6,845 bases of DNA from a virus, in UHGV virus genome UHGV-0274194; one strand, 5' to 3'. The notes under the pieces are model-generated. The model did not search any database. It had not been told where the DNA came from and saw only the letters and a list, made by a program, of their open reading frames with translations. A program made the translations under genes and the position numbers. Shown one piece after another: positions 1 to 6,845 of the stretch (position 1 is its first letter; each line of letters begins with the position of its first letter).

Positions 1-30
1 GCGTAATACGGGCGGTAATGGCTTTTTCAT
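1..30 (-). CDS. 5' end of a minus-strand gene (first 10 codons, [10 protein letters not shown]) continuing beyond the window start; product unknown, possibly the primase-side early operon
   Basis: ATG at 30..28 is preceded by GGGGAGGG about 7 nt upstream on the minus strand. Its start overlaps the stop of the 75-aa ORF (ATGA at 27-30). Too little sequence to identify the product. Confidence 0.45.
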   Translation of the reverse strand, partial: MKKPLPPVLR

Positions 31-254
31 ACGTTACCCTCCCCGGTCAGCCACTGCTGATTGCAGCGTTCGACCACGCCGTCGAGCTGGGCGGTCATGA
101 GGTAAATCACGGAGGTGAGCTGTGACTGCTGCACCGGGTCACGACGAACGGTGGCGCAGTCCTGCACCTGCATCAGCTCATTGACGAGCTGGCCGACATT
201 GCGCATATGCTCCAGACATTCGAGGTCACGGGCGGTAATGGTGGTGTGTCTCAT
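27..254 (-). CDS. Hypothetical small protein (75 aa), P4-like early-region ORF
   Basis: ORF with a GGAGG Shine-Dalgarno 7 nt upstream of ATG 254..252. ATGA overlaps with both neighbours (251-254 and 27-30) indicate translational coupling. Composition is protein-like, but I do not recognise the family. Confidence 0.6.
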
Positions 255-445
255 GCGCGCACCTCCGCAACCGGCAGACGGCCAGCAAACGAGAGGACGT
301 AATCGCGAACGAGGGAAAGGCGTGCGGCGTGCTCATCACCGGCAACGGTGCGGAGCATACAAATACGAGGGGTACGGTCTGCGCGACGAACAGCAGCAAA
401 CACAAAGACAAATTGCGGGTGTGACGGGGTGAGGGTCGTAGCCAT
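251..445 (-). CDS. Hypothetical small protein (64 aa, [16 protein letters not shown]...), start chosen at the internal ATG with an SD
   Basis: ATG 445..443 is preceded by GGAGG with 8-nt spacing. Its stop overlaps the next gene's start (ATGA at 251-254). The longer 183-aa frame upstream (to 802) has no SD and an odd P/R/G/F-rich composition. Confidence 0.5.
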
Positions 446-798
446 AGTGGCAACCTCCATTGAGTAGCGGTTATTGCCACCACCGGAGTTCCTACGCTCA
501 TGGGTGGTGACCCGAACGGGGGTAGGAATACCGGCCTCAATGAATACCGGCCAGCCCGAAGGCTGCCCCGCCCGGATCACCATTATCTGACAGGGGCTAA
601 GGTGTAAACACCACAGCCCGAAAAATGGGTGTGCCTGAGCAACGACGTAAAAAAAGACGCATGGCGCGTCCGGTGTCGCCATTGAGTAACTCGGGTTCCT
701 ACGCCCGGCTGCCGATTTTGCGACAGCGGGAAAACTATACCTGGAAACGGCGAAAAGAAGCAAGCCAGAAAAAGGGGCTGTTTGCTGAACGGTCATCA

Positions 799-1065
799 TC
801 ATGCGTCATAGCCCCGGTTACGTTCGGCAATGCGATCCGCCATCCATGCAGTGATTTCAGACTGCGCCCACGCCACATTTTTTCCGCCGAGGGAGATTTG
901 TTTCGGGAAGGCTTCCCGGCTGATGAGGTCGTAAATGGTCGAGCGGGACAGGCCGCACAGATGCATCACTTCGGGCAGACGGATAAAGCGCTCGTGAACG
1001 GTATCAGAAACCGGCATCAGAGGCGCGGCAGGGGCAGAAGACGGGGAAGAAAAAGCAGTGTGCAT
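799..1065 (-). CDS. alpA: AlpA-family phage transcriptional regulator (HTH, Vis/excisionase-like)
   Basis: The 88-aa ORF core ([48 protein letters not shown]) matches the AlpA/MerR-like prophage regulator pattern from memory. ATG 1065 has a GAGGT SD; an alternative start at ATG 1017 would give 72 aa. Confidence 0.8.
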
Positions 1066-1334
1066 CGGGCTACCTCACAAAGTCCATACAGTGCCGGTCG
1101 TGTCCGTCCGGCTTCGGGTAGCTCTCTATTTTGTGAATATTTTCCTTCAGAGCAACAAGTCATTTTGTAGTGCTTCACCATACAACAGAGCGATTTTTGA
1201 ACAATGGCAAATGCTGGCAAACAGATGCAAATCAATGCATTACATTGCAGTAACTTTAAGTACTTTCACTTATATATTTCCTCATAATTAATCGGAAAAA
1301 AGACTAAATCCGACAACCCAGGCAAAAAGCAAAA

Positions 1335-1444
1335 GGTGAACAGTAGTGAACAGTAGGTGAACAGTTATACCCCCAACTATTCACCCTTTATCTTGCTGTA
1401 TTACTTATCTTTTTCTTTTCAGTGAACAGTAGTGAATAGTTATA
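1335..1444. repeat. Cluster of iteron-like direct repeats (G)GTGAACAGTA: three tandem units at 1335-1370, two more at 1422-1444, one inverted partial copy (TATTCACC) at 1377-1385
   Basis: Repeats are directly visible. GGTGAACA is the reverse complement of TGTTCACC, the type I iteron octamer bound by P4 alpha primase at ori/crr (recalled, not searched). Confidence 0.6.
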
Positions 1445-1515
1445 AGTAAAAAAACAAACGGTGAGTAGGGTTTTCCTGAGACCTTTCTCTGGCCAGCCGG
1501 GTTTTAAGGTTTGTT

Positions 1516-1533
1516 TGTACCATTTTTGCCACA
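1516..1533 (+). promoter_or_regulatory. TGT-N12-ACA dyad, candidate Ogr/Delta activator-binding site of the late promoter Psid
   Basis: tTGTaccatttttgccACAa lies 73-90 bp upstream of the sid ATG. The P2/P4 late-promoter consensus is TGT-N12-ACA centred near -55. Confidence 0.5.
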
Positions 1534-1605
1534 ACGGCAATGAATCGTGTTGTTGTGTCCGGCGCGGCAGAATCTCCTCAGATTGAAACGAAGAGGAGAC
1601 CCGAC

Positions 1606-2343
1606 ATGACTCATACCGCTGTTATTCCCGACTACCTTAAACCCGCAATCGAACGGCTTGAGACGGCCAGAGAGGAACATCTCATTAATGCCCGACACAT
1701 GGATGAAACCACGGCGGCCATCAGCCAGGTGAAAGCACAAAAAAAGGAACTGGAGCAGGAAAACGGCAATGATTCCGGCGCATGGCGCGCCGCCTTTCGT
1801 GCCGGTGGTGCTGTCATTACCGATGATCTGAAACAACGCCATCTGGCGCGCGTGGCACGGCGGGAACTGGCGCAGGAATGTGACAGCATGAACGAGGTAC
1901 TATCTTTTGAGTTGGACAGACTCAAAGGAGCCTGTGACCGCACGGCCAGAGCATACCGTCAGGCACATCACGGCGTCCTCAGTCAGTATGCAGAGCATGA
2001 ACTTGATGCATCCCTGCGTGAAAGCTGCGGTGCCCTCATCAGAGCAATGAAACTCAACATACTGGTTCTGAATAATCCACTTGCTAATACGACCGGGCAT
2101 CAGGGATATATCGAACCGGAAAAAGTTGTAATGCAGCAGGTGAAAGCATGGCTTGAACAGGCCGTAAAGGGCTGCAATATCCGTCTGACCGATGAACCGG
2201 TGCTGTTTAAAACAGGGCTGTCGGCTTCCACACTGCCGCATATGGAACATGACGTTGCGACCACGCCCGGTCAGCGAAAAGTCTGGCAGGAAAAAATGTG
2301 GGAACGTGAAGCTGACCTGAAAGCACGGGGGTTATTGTCATGA
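1606..2343 (+). CDS. sid: Sid, capsid size determination (external scaffold) protein
   Basis: 245-aa ORF with an AGGAG SD 8 nt upstream of ATG 1606. Position immediately upstream of, and coupled to, the Ogr/Delta gene, plus a length close to P4 Sid (about 244 aa). The ORF-track start at 1540 lacks an SD. Confidence 0.8.
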   Translation: MTHTAVIPDYLKPAIERLETAREEHLINARHMDETTAAISQVKAQKKELEQENGNDSGAWRAAFRAGGAVITDDLKQRHLARVARRELAQECDSMNEVLSFELDRLKGACDRTARAYRQAHHGVLSQYAEHELDASLRESCGALIRAMKLNILVLNNPLANTTGHQGYIEPEKVVMQQVKAWLEQAVKGCNIRLTDEPVLFKTGLSASTLPHMEHDVATTPGQRKVWQEKMWEREADLKARGLLS

Positions 2344-2585
2344 TGCGCTGCCCTTTCTGCCGCACAGCGGCACACGTTCGCACCAGCCGCTATATGTCTG
2401 ACAGCGTCAAAGAGAGTTACCTACAGTGCCAGAATGTGCACTGCTCGGCGACATTCAAAACGCATGAGTCCATCTTTGAAGTGATACGTTCGCCGGTCGT
2501 CGATGAGAAACCCGCGCCGGTGCCGACAGTCCCCGTGGCACCCCGTCGGGTAAAAGGCTGCTACAGCTCGCCGTTCCGCCATTAA
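2340..2585 (+). CDS. delta: Ogr/Delta-family zinc-finger late transcriptional activator (single-domain, 81 aa)
   Basis: Cys4 motif C4-x2-C7-x22-C30-x4-C35 (CPFC...CQNVHC) exactly fits the Ogr/Delta pattern. The start overlaps the sid stop (ATGA). Confidence 0.85.
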   Translation: MMRCPFCRTAAHVRTSRYMSDSVKESYLQCQNVHCSATFKTHESIFEVIRSPVVDEKPAPVPTVPVAPRRVKGCYSSPFRH

Positions 2586-2601
2586 TCAGGAGAGACAACC
2601 C

Positions 2602-3168
2602 GTGACCACTCTGACCTTACAGCAGGCCTATGACGCCTGTCAGACGAACAAAACCGCGTGGCTGAACCGTAAAACCGAACTGGCCGCCGCAATGCAGGAA
2701 TATCAGGAATTATTGCTGGATGACAATGCATCAGGCTCCCGCAGATTACAGACGCTGCGTGACCTGATTGACGTAAAAAAATGGGAAGTGAATCAGGCCG
2801 CCGGTCGCTACATCTTCTCGCATGAGGAGGTGCAGCGCATCAGCATCCGTAACCGGCTGCATGATTTTATGCAGCAGAACGGCGCAGAGTTGACCGCCGC
2901 ACTGGCACCGGAGCTGATGGGGATTAAAAACCAGCCCGCGATGATAAAGAATCGCGCGCTTGACCGTTCAGTTTCTTACCTGAGAGAAGCTCTTTCCGTC
3001 TGGCTGACCGTTGAAAATGAAATTAATTATTCTGCACAGGATAAAGATATTTTAACGGCCATCGGATACAGGCCTGACGCGCCTTCGCGGGATGATAATC
3101 GTGAAAAATTCACCCCTGCACAGAACATGATTTACACCCGTCGACGTGCCGAACTGGCCGCGCAGTAG
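2602..3168 (+). CDS. psu: Psu, polarity suppression protein (Rho antagonist / capsid decoration)
   Basis: 188-aa ORF with a GTG start preceded by AGGAGA. Length and position after delta match P4 Psu (about 190 aa), and the sequence looks Psu-like from memory. Confidence 0.85.
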   Translation: MTTLTLQQAYDACQTNKTAWLNRKTELAAAMQEYQELLLDDNASGSRRLQTLRDLIDVKKWEVNQAAGRYIFSHEEVQRISIRNRLHDFMQQNGAELTAALAPELMGIKNQPAMIKNRALDRSVSYLREALSVWLTVENEINYSAQDKDILTAIGYRPDAPSRDDNREKFTPAQNMIYTRRRAELAAQ

Positions 3169-3214
3169 CCTGTCAAAAAATCCCCGTAAATCCCGCTATT
3201 TTTAACGAAATAAG

Positions 3215-3241
3215 CCATGCATCCATAAGGTGCATGGTTTT
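3215..3241 (+). terminator. Probable intrinsic terminator of the sid-delta-psu operon
   Basis: 7-bp perfect stem CCATGCA / TGCATGG with a 9-nt loop, followed by TTTT, 47 bp after the psu stop. Confidence 0.5.
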
Positions 3242-3573
3242 GCATGCGTTTTCTCGCTCCGGCATGACAGACCAGCGCCAGTCGTGGCGCGGCCTGAGAC
3301 CACCTTTGCACCTGCATTAAAAGCGGCCCATTAAGCGGGCAGGCGTGGCGGGGAGAGCATTGCGCGCTGGCCTTCTATCTAATAACTTTGGGTTAAAGTA
3401 AGTCACAAGGTCAATGAAAGCTTTGTGAGATACAGATAAGCTATAATTGCTGCGATTGTGAATTAATCAATCGGGATTAGCACCATTTTCTTGTGTAACA
3501 TAAAAATTTCGGTAAACTCATTCTAAAAACTCGTGAAAAAATAATTATAACTCTATTCTTAGGAGGGTGTATT

Positions 3574-4212
3574 GTGTTGAATCCTGATGATTTGGATGAG
3601 GGTGTTTATCCAGATTGCTACTGGAGTTATATAGGGCAAAAGGATTATTTGAAGCCTAACACATACTTACAAGATGCAATTGATGATTTGAATTCAGGAA
3701 GTGAACGCCGAAATATGAATAATGCAGTGCGAAATGCAAAATCGGCATTACATATGAGAGTGGATATTCTTTGTCGAGCTTTTTGTGGCCGCGAATATTT
3801 CCAAAGGAATCTAAGGAACTTTCCAAAAAAGATGGATTTCCTAGAGGGAATTGGAATAGTTAGACCTAGAATAATTGATAAAATAAATAAAATAAGAAAT
3901 GAAATTGAGCACGAGTATCGAGATGCAACTCTTGAGGAAGCAGAGGATTTCATAGATATAGTTTTATTGTTTATGGAAGCAACTAGATATTTAAATTCAA
4001 GGTTTCCATGTGAAGTTGACTTCCATGGATTGGCAGTTTCTGATGAGGTTTATTTAAGGAGAGTAGTATGCAATTGGGAAGGTGGAGAATTACTTTTTTA
4101 CTATTCAAAGCAAGAGTCACGCCGGCTTGATAACGTGCAAACCTACTCAATAAAAGTGGGTGATTATAGATACGCTCGGTGGGTAAAATTCATTCTAGAT
4201 CATTGCGATTGA
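3574..4212 (+). CDS. Cargo protein, 212 aa, putative HEPN-domain RNase (HepT-like RNxxxHxY motif); function unverified
   Basis: GTG start with a strong SD (AGGAGGG, 6-nt spacing). Motif I-R108-N-E-I-E-H113-E-Y115 equals Rx4HxY in a predicted helical context. About 30% GC, far below the flanking core. A perfect TATAAT at 3442-3447 upstream has no good -35. Confidence 0.6.
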   Translation: MLNPDDLDEGVYPDCYWSYIGQKDYLKPNTYLQDAIDDLNSGSERRNMNNAVRNAKSALHMRVDILCRAFCGREYFQRNLRNFPKKMDFLEGIGIVRPRIIDKINKIRNEIEHEYRDATLEEAEDFIDIVLLFMEATRYLNSRFPCEVDFHGLAVSDEVYLRRVVCNWEGGELLFYYSKQESRRLDNVQTYSIKVGDYRYARWVKFILDHCD

Positions 4213-4249
4213 TATACTATTTGTCCTAACTCACTAAAATAAGTATTTT

Positions 4250-4276
4250 AGACCGAGCTAGGCGTAGCCTCGGTCT
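4250..4276. terminator. Hairpin between the convergent cargo genes (candidate bidirectional terminator)
   Basis: 8-bp perfect stem AGACCGAG / CTCGGTCT with an 11-nt loop, sited between the stop of the plus-strand gene (4212) and the stop of the minus-strand gene (4285). The flanking U-tracts are weak. Confidence 0.45.
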
Positions 4277-4284
4277 AAGTGTTA

Positions 4285-5310
4285 TCAATTTGCCAATGCA
4301 GCAACTAATCTTGCTAATTCATTGAAATTACTACTGAATTCTTTTCTGTTTTCTTTCATCGTATCCAGTATTACTCCATTTTGCTCTATTTGTGCATCTG
4401 AGAGGGCGAATACCGGCGTGCTATGTTTTTGAGATTGAGCAATTAGTGAGTTAAAGTCAGAAATATTCGCCAAATTAAAGGGCTCTTTTGAGGGACAGGC
4501 ATTTTCAAAATCAGTAACCGAAATTGACATATTGATAGGATTTAAAGCTGGTATTAATGTATTAGTGACCTCATCTTTGATAATATCAATCCATCTTTGA
4601 AATGATTTTACTGGTAAATTATTTCTTGGACGATACTTCTGAGATATAAATCCGATGAATTTCGGCGGATCAATAGGGAATGGATATAATATTCCACTAT
4701 CTCTAAAGTTATTTATCTCGCTGTTCCATCTAGGAAGAACTTTTGCGAGTGACTTTATTGCCTGAGCACAGAAAAAATCTGGTGATGTAGGAACTATAAA
4801 ATAGTCACTGCACATTAAGAGACATTCATTTAATGCACCAACGCTGGGGCTCATGTCAATAAGGACATAATCAAATTCATGTTTGCGCGCAGTCTCACGC
4901 AAAAAAGCTCCGATGCTGCCGGGGATATTTCTAATTGCGGGAATAGCAGCGCTGGTTGTCAGCGCAACTCCAATCTGTGTTTCAATTTCTGATAAATAGA
5001 TGCTACCACACAATAAACTTAAATTTGGATTTGTTGTGACTAATGGGTCGGATGGTATAACTTTTCCTAAAGAACCATCTACAACAGGTTTGATGCAACT
5101 ATAAATATCACAGTTTGGATTGTTTTTATAGATTTCATCAAAGTCATCAGTGGTCGAATAGCCCAAAGCTAAGGCTGTCAAATTACATTGTGGATCAGCA
5201 TCAACTATTAAAACTTTATAGCCAAGATTAGCTAGCATCCACCCCATGTTAAAAGTCGTGGTTGTCTTACTAACACCACCTTTATGATTAAATAAAGATA
5301 TTATTTTCAT
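4285..5310 (-). CDS. ParA/MinD-like P-loop ATPase (deviant Walker A), 341 aa, with a long C-terminal extension
   Basis: N-terminus FNHKGGVSKTT is a deviant Walker A (KGGxxK[ST]); A' motif VLIVDADPQ; Walker B FDYVLIDMSP. AAGGA SD 7 nt upstream of the ATG. About 36% GC. Confidence 0.8.
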   Translation of the reverse strand: MKIISLFNHKGGVSKTTTTFNMGWMLANLGYKVLIVDADPQCNLTALALGYSTTDDFDEIYKNNPNCDIYSCIKPVVDGSLGKVIPSDPLVTTNPNLSLLCGSIYLSEIETQIGVALTTSAAIPAIRNIPGSIGAFLRETARKHEFDYVLIDMSPSVGALNECLLMCSDYFIVPTSPDFFCAQAIKSLAKVLPRWNSEINNFRDSGILYPFPIDPPKFIGFISQKYRPRNNLPVKSFQRWIDIIKDEVTNTLIPALNPINMSISVTDFENACPSKEPFNLANISDFNSLIAQSQKHSTPVFALSDAQIEQNGVILDTMKENRKEFSSNFNELARLVAALAN

Positions 5311-5332
5311 TCGAAATCCTTAATAGAAATTA

Positions 5333-6499
5333 TTACTTTAAAAGATAGTTGCTATACCACTGAAGCATTTCCCTTCTTCTTTCAAGGTATTGAGCATGAT
5401 TATATGTTCCTCGAATACTATTCTTATCAACATGAGCAAGTTGCAACTCAATCCATGCACTATCAAACCCTTGTTCATGCAATATTGTCGACATTGTATG
5501 TCTGAAACCGTGACCTGTAGCACGACCTTTATAACCCAGTAGTTCAATTACTTGCGACACACTCTCCTTAGATATTGGTTTGTTACGGTTGTTTCGCCCA
5601 ATAAAAATGTAAGGATAGTGTCTTGTAATAGGTTTTAGTTGGTTAAAAAGATCAACGACTTGTGTTGATAGAGGGATAATATGGGGTCTGCGCATTTTCA
5701 TTCGTTCTGCGGGGATTTCCCATAAACCTCTCTCAAGGTCAACCTCATCCCATGCTGCAAAGCGCATCTCTTGAGTTCTCACACCGGTGAGCATAACTAT
5801 CTTTGTTGCATTTTTCGTTATGATGCTACCGGTATACGCTTCGAGATCCTGAATAAAATGAGGCAATTCTTCGGCAGATAGAAATGGATGATGTTTTTGT
5901 TTAGGAACGGCCAGAGCGATGGCTAAATCAGGCGCAGGATTGTATTCAGCGCGGCCAGTTATGATTGCGTAGCGATAAACCTCACCGCACCTCTGACGCA
6001 CCTTACGTGTTTTCTCTAGTGCCCCACGCTTCTCTATTCGTCGCAATACTTCAAGCAGTTCTAACGGTTTGATTTCACTGATAGGGCGTTTACCAATGAA
6101 CGGGAACACATCTTGCTCAAATGTCTTAATGATTTCTTCGCGATAGGCCACTGTCCAGCGGTCAGCTTTGTTAGTGTACCATTCTCGACATATGGTTTCG
6201 AATGAGTTCTCTGTTGAGAGTTGCTGTGCCAGTTTTTGGGCTTTACGTTCTCCCACTGGGTCTATGCCGTTTGCTACCTGCTTACGAGCGGTATCGCGTT
6301 TCTCACGTGCTTCTGCGAGGCTCACAAGGTTGTAGCTGCCAAATGACATTAGCCGTGCTTTACCGGCAAAACGAAAGCGGAAGCGCCAGCCCTTTGAGCC
6401 GTCTGGATTGATGAGTAATGACAGGCCTTGTCCATCGTTCAGTGTGTAGGGTTTGTTTTGGGGCTTTGCTCGTTTAATTTGTATATCTGTTAGTGGCAT
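5333..6499 (-). CDS. int: P4-type tyrosine site-specific integrase (selC-targeting family)
   Basis: 388 aa. The N-terminal arm-binding region ([24 protein letters not shown]) is typical of P4-like integrases, and catalytic-core motifs are present (R in GVRTQEMR, HxxR in GHGFRHT, LAHV, Y in RGTYNHAQY). It is adjacent to and co-oriented with the tRNA 3' end. Confidence 0.9.
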   Translation of the reverse strand: MPLTDIQIKRAKPQNKPYTLNDGQGLSLLINPDGSKGWRFRFRFAGKARLMSFGSYNLVSLAEAREKRDTARKQVANGIDPVGERKAQKLAQQLSTENSFETICREWYTNKADRWTVAYREEIIKTFEQDVFPFIGKRPISEIKPLELLEVLRRIEKRGALEKTRKVRQRCGEVYRYAIITGRAEYNPAPDLAIALAVPKQKHHPFLSAEELPHFIQDLEAYTGSIITKNATKIVMLTGVRTQEMRFAAWDEVDLERGLWEIPAERMKMRRPHIIPLSTQVVDLFNQLKPITRHYPYIFIGRNNRNKPISKESVSQVIELLGYKGRATGHGFRHTMSTILHEQGFDSAWIELQLAHVDKNSIRGTYNHAQYLERRREMLQWYSNYLLK

Positions 6500-6550
6500 G
6501 TGTATAAGTCAAAAGTGTGTATAAAAAATCTATACACATCACTATACATA
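6500..6550. promoter_or_regulatory. int upstream region with palindrome TGTGTATA-N7-TATACACA (6516-6538) and extra GTGTATA / TATACA copies; candidate operator or integrase arm sites
   Basis: Perfect 8-bp inverted repeat with a 7-bp spacer. Another GTGTATA sits at 6500-6506 abutting the int start codon, and ACTATACATA at 6541-6550. Confidence 0.4.
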
Positions 6551-6660
6551 TTTTTCATGGATTCAGGGAGAGCTTGTCGGACGGTTACGGATGAGCGATT
6601 TACTATATGCTTTGAAAATAAAGGATTTTTAGACTTTCTCGGATGGTGACGGAGGAATTT

Positions 6661-6728
6661 TGGCGGAAGATCACAGGAGTCGAACCTGCCCGGGACCGCT
6701 GGCGGCCCCAACTGGATTTGAAGTCCAG
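6661..6728 (-). tRNA. selC: Truncated tRNA-Sec (selC): the 3' 68 nt only (anticodon arm with UCA, long variable arm, T arm, 3' acceptor strand with GCCA); the 5' acceptor strand and D arm are missing
   Basis: The reverse complement CTGGACTTCAAATCCAGTTGGGGCCGCCAGCGGTCCCGGGCAGGTTCGACTCCTGTGATCTTCCGCCA matches the 3' portion of E. coli selC as recalled. The TCA anticodon and long extra arm are visible. The match stops abruptly at 6728. Confidence 0.8.
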
Positions 6729-6845
6729 AACGATGGACAAGGCCTGTCATTACTCATCAATCCAGACGGCTCAAAGGGCTGGCGCTTCCGCTTTCGTTTT
6801 GCCGGTAAAGCACGGCTAATGTCATTTGGCAGCTACAACCTTGTG
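6729..6845 (+). repeat. Perfect inverted duplicate of int codons 21-59 (partner arm 6323..6439), fused to the truncated selC and running off the window; possibly the 5'-truncated start of a second, oppositely oriented integrase
   Basis: Manual base-by-base reverse-complement comparison of 6323-6439 with 6729-6845 gives 117/117 identity. It translates on the plus strand as [39 protein letters not shown], with no in-frame start codon upstream. Confidence 0.9.

Follow-up and report, generated by a model that had tools for sequence, protein, structure and literature searches.

A probable P4-type ori1 replication origin between alpA/vis and sid in a selC-integrated P4-like satellite prophage

The P4 origin and the prophage under study

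The closest described counterpart of the repeat cluster considered here is the replication origin of satellite phage P4, which was mapped and annotated decades ago. The P4 alpha protein reportedly binds type I iterons, and the minimal origin, ori1, is said to measure ~123 bp and to comprise six iterons and a 35-bp AT-rich region. Insertions of 6 or 10 bp are reported to inactivate P4 ori1. The late promoters of P4 depend on an activator, and TGT-N12-ACA, placed ~55 bp ahead of the transcript start, is the activator-site pattern of P2 and P4 late promoters. In the P4 record (X51522), the type 1 repeats are annotated at 9310, 9320 and 9331 (- strand), 9353 (+ strand), and 9396 and 9406 (- strand), between ORF88 (8764-9030) and sid (9583-). 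P4 also carries crr (X51522 4291-4590), downstream of alpha, with two 120-bp units; a unit holds five iterons in the orientation + + - - +.

The DNA analysed here, hereafter the window, is a stretch of 6,845 bases and is a P4-like satellite prophage at selC. Its content comprises C4 and isrK immunity RNAs, an ash-like ORF, alpA/vis, sid, delta, psu, cargo genes and int (Table 1). The start of sid, the ATG at 1606, was set by alignment with P4 Sid and by the RefSeq annotation of a relative. The C4 and isrK RNAs are encoded on the - strand, downstream of alpA, and fall within or beside the Ash-family ORF.

The interval between psu and int is a hotspot that holds different cargo in other relatives. 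In the window it encodes a 212-aa protein, for which no Pfam or PADLOC match was found, and a 341-aa ParA/CbiA-like ATPase, whose PADLOC match to PDC-M28B was weak and partial. The pair may represent an uncharacterised two-gene defence cargo. At the right end, the last 118 bases of the window (6728-6845) are a perfect reverse complement of 6323-6440, in the 5' part of the integrase ORF, and are joined within the tRNA-Sec gene; in every relative, the match to the window stops at 6728. Since the junction at 6728 falls inside the gene, the tRNA-Sec has a non-native 5' end. This end probably reflects a chimeric or folded-back contig terminus; less probably, the rearrangement is genuine.

Table 1. 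Features of the window, with iterons numbered from alpA/vis towards sid
Feature	Position	Strand	Remarks
Ash-family ORF	251-802	-	
C4 antisense RNA (P4 CI-type immunity RNA family)	500-587	-	Rfam, 81 bits
isrK Hfq-binding RNA	650-727	-	Rfam, 71 bits
alpA/vis homologue, left flank of origin region	799-1065	-	88 aa, AlpA family, 70% identical to P4 ORF88/Vis
TGT-N13-ACA dyad-like site, putatively on the PLL side, upstream of alpA/vis	1166-1184	.	Aligns to P4 TGT-N12-ACA 9133-9150
Five GCA-repeats, phased at 10 bp, where P4 has its 'ori type 2 repeats'	1207-1256	+	Not conserved with P4; hypervariable in the family
Iteron 1, GGTGAACAGT	1335-1344	+	Exact P4 type I octamer TGTTCACC on - strand; aligns to P4 repeat 9310-9317
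Iteron 2, AGTGAACAGT	1345-1354	+	Octamer with first base A for G; aligns to P4 repeat 9320-9327
Iteron 3, GGTGAACAGT	1356-1365	+	Exact octamer; aligns to P4 repeat 9331-9338
Iteron 4, inverted	1376-1385	-	ACTATTCACC on +, GGTGAATAGT on -; aligns to the sole oppositely oriented P4 repeat, 9353-9360
AT-rich spacer between iterons 4 and 5, presumed unwinding segment	1386-1420	.	74% A+T, compared with 54% in the whole window
Iteron 5, AGTGAACAGT	1421-1430	+	Aligns to P4 repeat 9396-9403
Iteron 6, AGTGAATAGT	1431-1440	+	Two mismatches to octamer; aligns to P4 repeat 9406-9413
TGT-N12-ACA dyad, putative Ogr/Delta activator site of the sid late promoter (Psid)	1516-1533	+	
sid homologue, right flank of origin region	1606-2343	+	245 aa, 63% identical to P4 Sid
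Ogr/Delta-like gene	2340-2585		
psu	2602-3168		
Cargo gene 1	3574-4212	+	
Cargo gene 2	4285-5310	-	
Tyrosine integrase	5333-6499	-	
tRNA-Sec	6665-6757	-	ARAGORN

The repeat cluster and its alignment with P4 ori1

The cluster at 1335-1444 reads GGTGAACAGT AGTGAACAGT A GGTGAACAGT, followed by 10 nt, ACTATTCACC, a 35-nt AT-rich segment, and AGTGAACAGT AGTGAATAGT. Its 9-mer GTGAACAGT occurs in four exact copies on the + strand, at 1336, 1346, 1357 and 1422, with a one-mismatch direct copy, GTGAATAGT, at 1432 and a one-mismatch inverted copy at 1376-1384. At up to one mismatch, the 9-mer was matched seven times in the 6,845-base window, as against 1.35 matches expected, and none of 200 shuffled sequences contained seven or more. 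Six of these matches fall within 1336-1440 (five + and one -); the seventh, at 994-1002, stands alone within alpA. The exact P4 octamer TGTTCACC was found in the window only at 1335-1342 and 1356-1363, on the - strand, so that two of the six iterons match it exactly, three with one mismatch, and one with two mismatches. A repeat search of the window recovered the same copies.

These results bear out the original prediction, made from the sequence alone, of five direct copies and one inverted copy, as found by both motif and repeat searches. Two of the copies had been said to contain GGTGAACA, as the two exact occurrences of TGTTCACC confirm. The cluster had also been placed between alpA and sid, 160-270 bp upstream of sid; the measured distance was 162-271 bp.

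A BLAST search with positions 700-2400 against phage records returned P4 (X51522), with 70.6% identity over 94% of the query, or 1.6 kb. The P4 features under the match include the "origin of DNA replication", six copies of "ori type 1 repeat" and three of "ori type 2 repeat". Each window iteron aligned one to one with one P4 type 1 repeat, in pairwise as well as seven-way alignments. Start-to-start spacings of 10, 11 and 86 bp are common to the window and P4, and the first iteron lies 271 bp from the sid ATG in the window and 273 bp in P4. The spacer segment CTGTATTACTTATCTTTTT is identical in the two, and the AT-rich spacer as a whole nearly so. Likeness to P4 reaches beyond the octamer, in overall identity, spacing and spacer, and the window itself shows these features of a P4-type ori1: iterons in a 3+1+2 arrangement, sequence of the TGTTCACC type, an AT-rich segment of ~35 bp, and a location between vis and sid.

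Because of the one-to-one alignment of the iterons, their equal spacing, the identical CTGTATTACTTATCTTTTT segment and the shared position, the cluster is assigned as an orthologue of P4 ori1. Positions 1335-1444 very probably represent the ori1 replication origin of the P4-like satellite prophage integrated at selC. The cluster had been predicted to be an alpha-binding region resembling either ori or crr; position and sequence sharpen this to the ori1 orthologue, with six corresponding iterons. It is ori rather than crr that the block resembles, since it has the 3+1+2 pattern and lies next to sid.

The practical use of the assignment is in annotation, where the ori core can be fixed at 1335-1444. 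As the orthologue of a long-known origin in an uncharacterised P4-like prophage, the block has little discovery value. One comparative survey of P4-like satellites (PMC8628076), checked for these terms, mentions neither iterons nor crr. This silence suggests that a small descriptive gap may exist, not a conceptual one.

Conservation of the cluster and its late-promoter surroundings

Relatives were collected from complete E. coli genomes, exact-protein look-ups, a sample of one genome per species, and IMG/VR, whose viral contigs were the source of the diversity. The one-genome-per-species sample, examined by Sid alignment, gave seven loci from the genera Citrobacter, Enterobacter, Scandinavium and Mangrovibacter. 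Three direct, one inverted and two direct iterons, within a core of 106-108 nt, were found in 94 of 101 related loci (46 distinct sequences, from several enterobacterial genera). Among 40 distinct 108-nt cores, the majority-base frequency was 0.956 in iteron columns and 0.856 elsewhere, and within the AT-rich spacer CTGTATTACTTATCTTTTT hardly varies in the family. Over ten diverse elements, the conservation profile of the alpA-sid spacer fell to a trough at 1166-1330, where the sequence is variable, and reached a plateau at 1331 that continued onwards. A match to the spacer was present in 1282 of 5426 complete E. coli genomes; the weakest of the E. coli matches keep only window positions 1336-1442, and the iteron block persists even in a distant O157 element whose spacer measures 933 bp. 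The near-invariant length of the core fits a need for fixed iteron phasing. Architecture and length together constitute a family-wide invariant, which could serve as a marker for P4-like satellites.

These data also bear on whether the cluster might be a functionless repeat, produced by chance or by low sequence complexity. Only the short length of the repeat unit favours such an origin, to which we assign a negligible probability. It was rejected on two grounds: the observed count was reached in 0 of 200 shuffles, and the iteron architecture is conserved across genera, with 3+1+2 retained in the 94 of 101 relatives.

The ori1 block sits between two divergent Ogr/Delta late promoters, adjoining their activator sites without overlapping them, as in P4. 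The block is separated by 72 bp from the TGT-N12-ACA dyad towards sid and by ~150 bp from the dyad-like site towards alpA. The centre of the TGT-N12-ACA dyad precedes the sid ATG by 81 bp in the window, P4 and most of nine relatives, and by 79-96 bp in the others. The iterons themselves were considered as a possible Ogr/Delta activator site, and this was rejected: the sole intergenic TGT-N12-ACA dyad is that at 1516-1533, outside the block. A sigma-70 scan of 1000-1650 gave one match, which is at chance level and uninformative for activator-dependent late promoters.

A second TGT-N12-ACA dyad, located 43 bp upstream of the sid ATG, occurs in P4 (9531-9548) and in some relatives. No perfect second dyad was found at 1554-1571 of the window.

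From its placement, the cluster had been thought to combine replication-origin function with an overlapping late-promoter control, in a manner particular to this element. Neither part of this idea was sustained. The activator sites are 72 and ~150 bp away, and the arrangement is canonical in P4 and kept in 94 of 101 relatives. The position between the late promoters is ancestral.

The variable part of the spacer contains a different set of repeats. Those at 1207-1256, which are GCAAATGCTG, GCAAACAGAT, GCAAATCAAT, GCATTACATT and GCAGTAACTT, occupy the place of the P4 type 2 repeats (9176-9205) and are unrelated to them. Other lineages carry phased repeats of their own, for example TGGCAAAC in loci L014, L015 and L020. 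The variable-repeat motif TGGCAAAY was not enriched in the window (13 occurrences compared with 15.8 expected) and did not recur near att. The phased repeats could be element-specific sites for a regulator or another DNA-binding protein.

Alpha, crr and comparison with other origins

Both alpha and crr are outside the window, because the window ends ~800 bp beyond alpA. Eight near-identical loci (L005-L012) encode a Sid identical to that of the window, with the same gene order and cargo genes; over 1-6728, their sequences depart from it at 0-4 positions. Alpha is full-length (777 aa) in seven of these eight. In L005 it is 82% identical to P4 alpha over the whole length, and its residues 671-770 correspond to PDB 1KA8, an entry deposited under the name "putative P4-specific DNA primase". 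In our reading, this structure is that of the P4 origin-binding domain described by Yeo et al. 2002.

Directly downstream of alpha there is a five-copy cluster of the GTGAACAGT 9-mer, at 6218-6310 in L003 and 5615-5705 in L005, and identical in L009. Its orientation, + + - - +, is that of an individual unit of P4 crr; the window-type relatives have a single crr unit, as opposed to the two units of P4. The original prediction had proposed a search for a second iteron cluster. None was found in the window, by a motif search at up to one mismatch or by a search for the exact octamer, whereas the near-identical elements have one at the crr position downstream of alpha. From these elements, we infer that the source genome carries both alpha and crr.

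By homology to P4, the C-terminal winged-helix origin-binding domain of the alpha primase-helicase would bind the six iterons, which lie about one helical turn apart (three direct, one inverted, two direct). Alpha would be expected to bind the second cluster as well, at crr, ~4 kb away and just downstream of the alpha gene. By the same analogy it would open the 35-bp AT-rich segment, prime and unwind, and replication would be bidirectional once the element had been induced or excised.

The phasing of the direct repeats also suggests a different protein. They could be sites for the AlpA/Vis recombination-directionality factor, serving to regulate the divergent late promoters instead of recruiting alpha. 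Recombination-directionality factors bind head-to-tail tandem repeats with a period of about one helical turn (PMC7498355), the reference list of PMC2603039 cites P4 Vis as regulating the P4 late promoters, and the repeats do lie between alpA and sid. However, the motif is found again downstream of alpha, at the crr position; each copy pairs with one annotated type 1 repeat of the P4 origin; and an inverted copy and a 44-bp gap do not suit a head-to-tail filament. No GTGAACAGT-like site (up to one mismatch) was found near int/att, in 1441-6845. An AlpA/Vis array was rejected on this last point, as the motif is absent from the att arm by int, where Vis acts, and we consider it very improbable. 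It is recurrence at crr, together with absence near int/att, that distinguishes alpha iterons from AlpA/Vis sites.

If the cluster is ori1, as we favour, it might still be an inactive relic of an orthologous origin, in a prophage that is decaying or whose resident alpha is truncated. Of the loci compared, L009 alone shows no difference from the window over 1-6728, and its alpha gene carries a nonsense mutation at codon 664 (L009 6101), just ahead of the origin-binding domain. Because the truncation removes this domain, the L009 origin would depend on alpha provided in trans; should the window derive from the L009 clone, its origin is intact and would have the same need. The rearranged or chimeric right end of the window, inside selC, also points towards a relic. 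Against this, no damage is seen in the six iterons, in their spacing or in the AT-rich spacer, all of which match those of the seven near-identical elements with a 777-aa alpha. Moreover, alpha from a co-resident P4-like element would still serve the origin, and up to four places per E. coli genome match the spacer region. On balance, a relic seems unlikely, though less so than the alternatives above.

Sequence differences among the iterons fall into a pattern across the family. Read over the six iterons, the first bases of the octamer are GAGGAA in the window lineage, compared with GGGGGG in P4; that is, A replaces G in iterons 2, 5 and 6, while P4 has G in all six. In addition, the core C of P4 ori is T in window iterons 4 and 6, and the iteron consensus of the lineage is RGTGAAYAGT, compared with GGTGAACAG in P4. 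The departures from the octamer count against the assignment to ori1; however, deviations of these kinds (A or T as the first base, T in place of the core C) occur also in the annotated type I repeats of P4 crr. In 78 readable loci, GAGGAA was found with the signature H/T/K...RKN in the alpha origin-binding domain and GGGGGG with N/K/L...HTK, and the association was complete. A few GGGGGA intermediates were seen among the 94 related loci (L004-L103).

One reading of this association is that P4-like satellites have at least two origin-specificity types, each a co-adapted pair of initiator and origin. Several satellites could then share a cell without cross-initiation or incompatibility. We hold this to be a doubtful proposition, as the association is at the level of clades and may reflect two clades and the shared ancestry of a linked module.

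Compared with described origins, the block is closest to P4 ori (X51522 ~9310-9413), with which it shares the number, order, orientation and spacing of the iterons, the spacer, and the location between vis and sid. P4 crr belongs to the same iteron family and has the same initiator; it differs in its five-iteron units and its place downstream of alpha, where the window block is arranged 3+1+2 and adjoins sid. The origins of PICI satellites and of iteron plasmids likewise have two sets of initiator repeats flanking an AT-rich melting region (PMC6092414), but their repeats and initiators are unrelated to those of the window. Unlike these, P4-type origins are bipartite, with ori and a distant crr, and are used by a primase-helicase with a C-terminal winged-helix domain.
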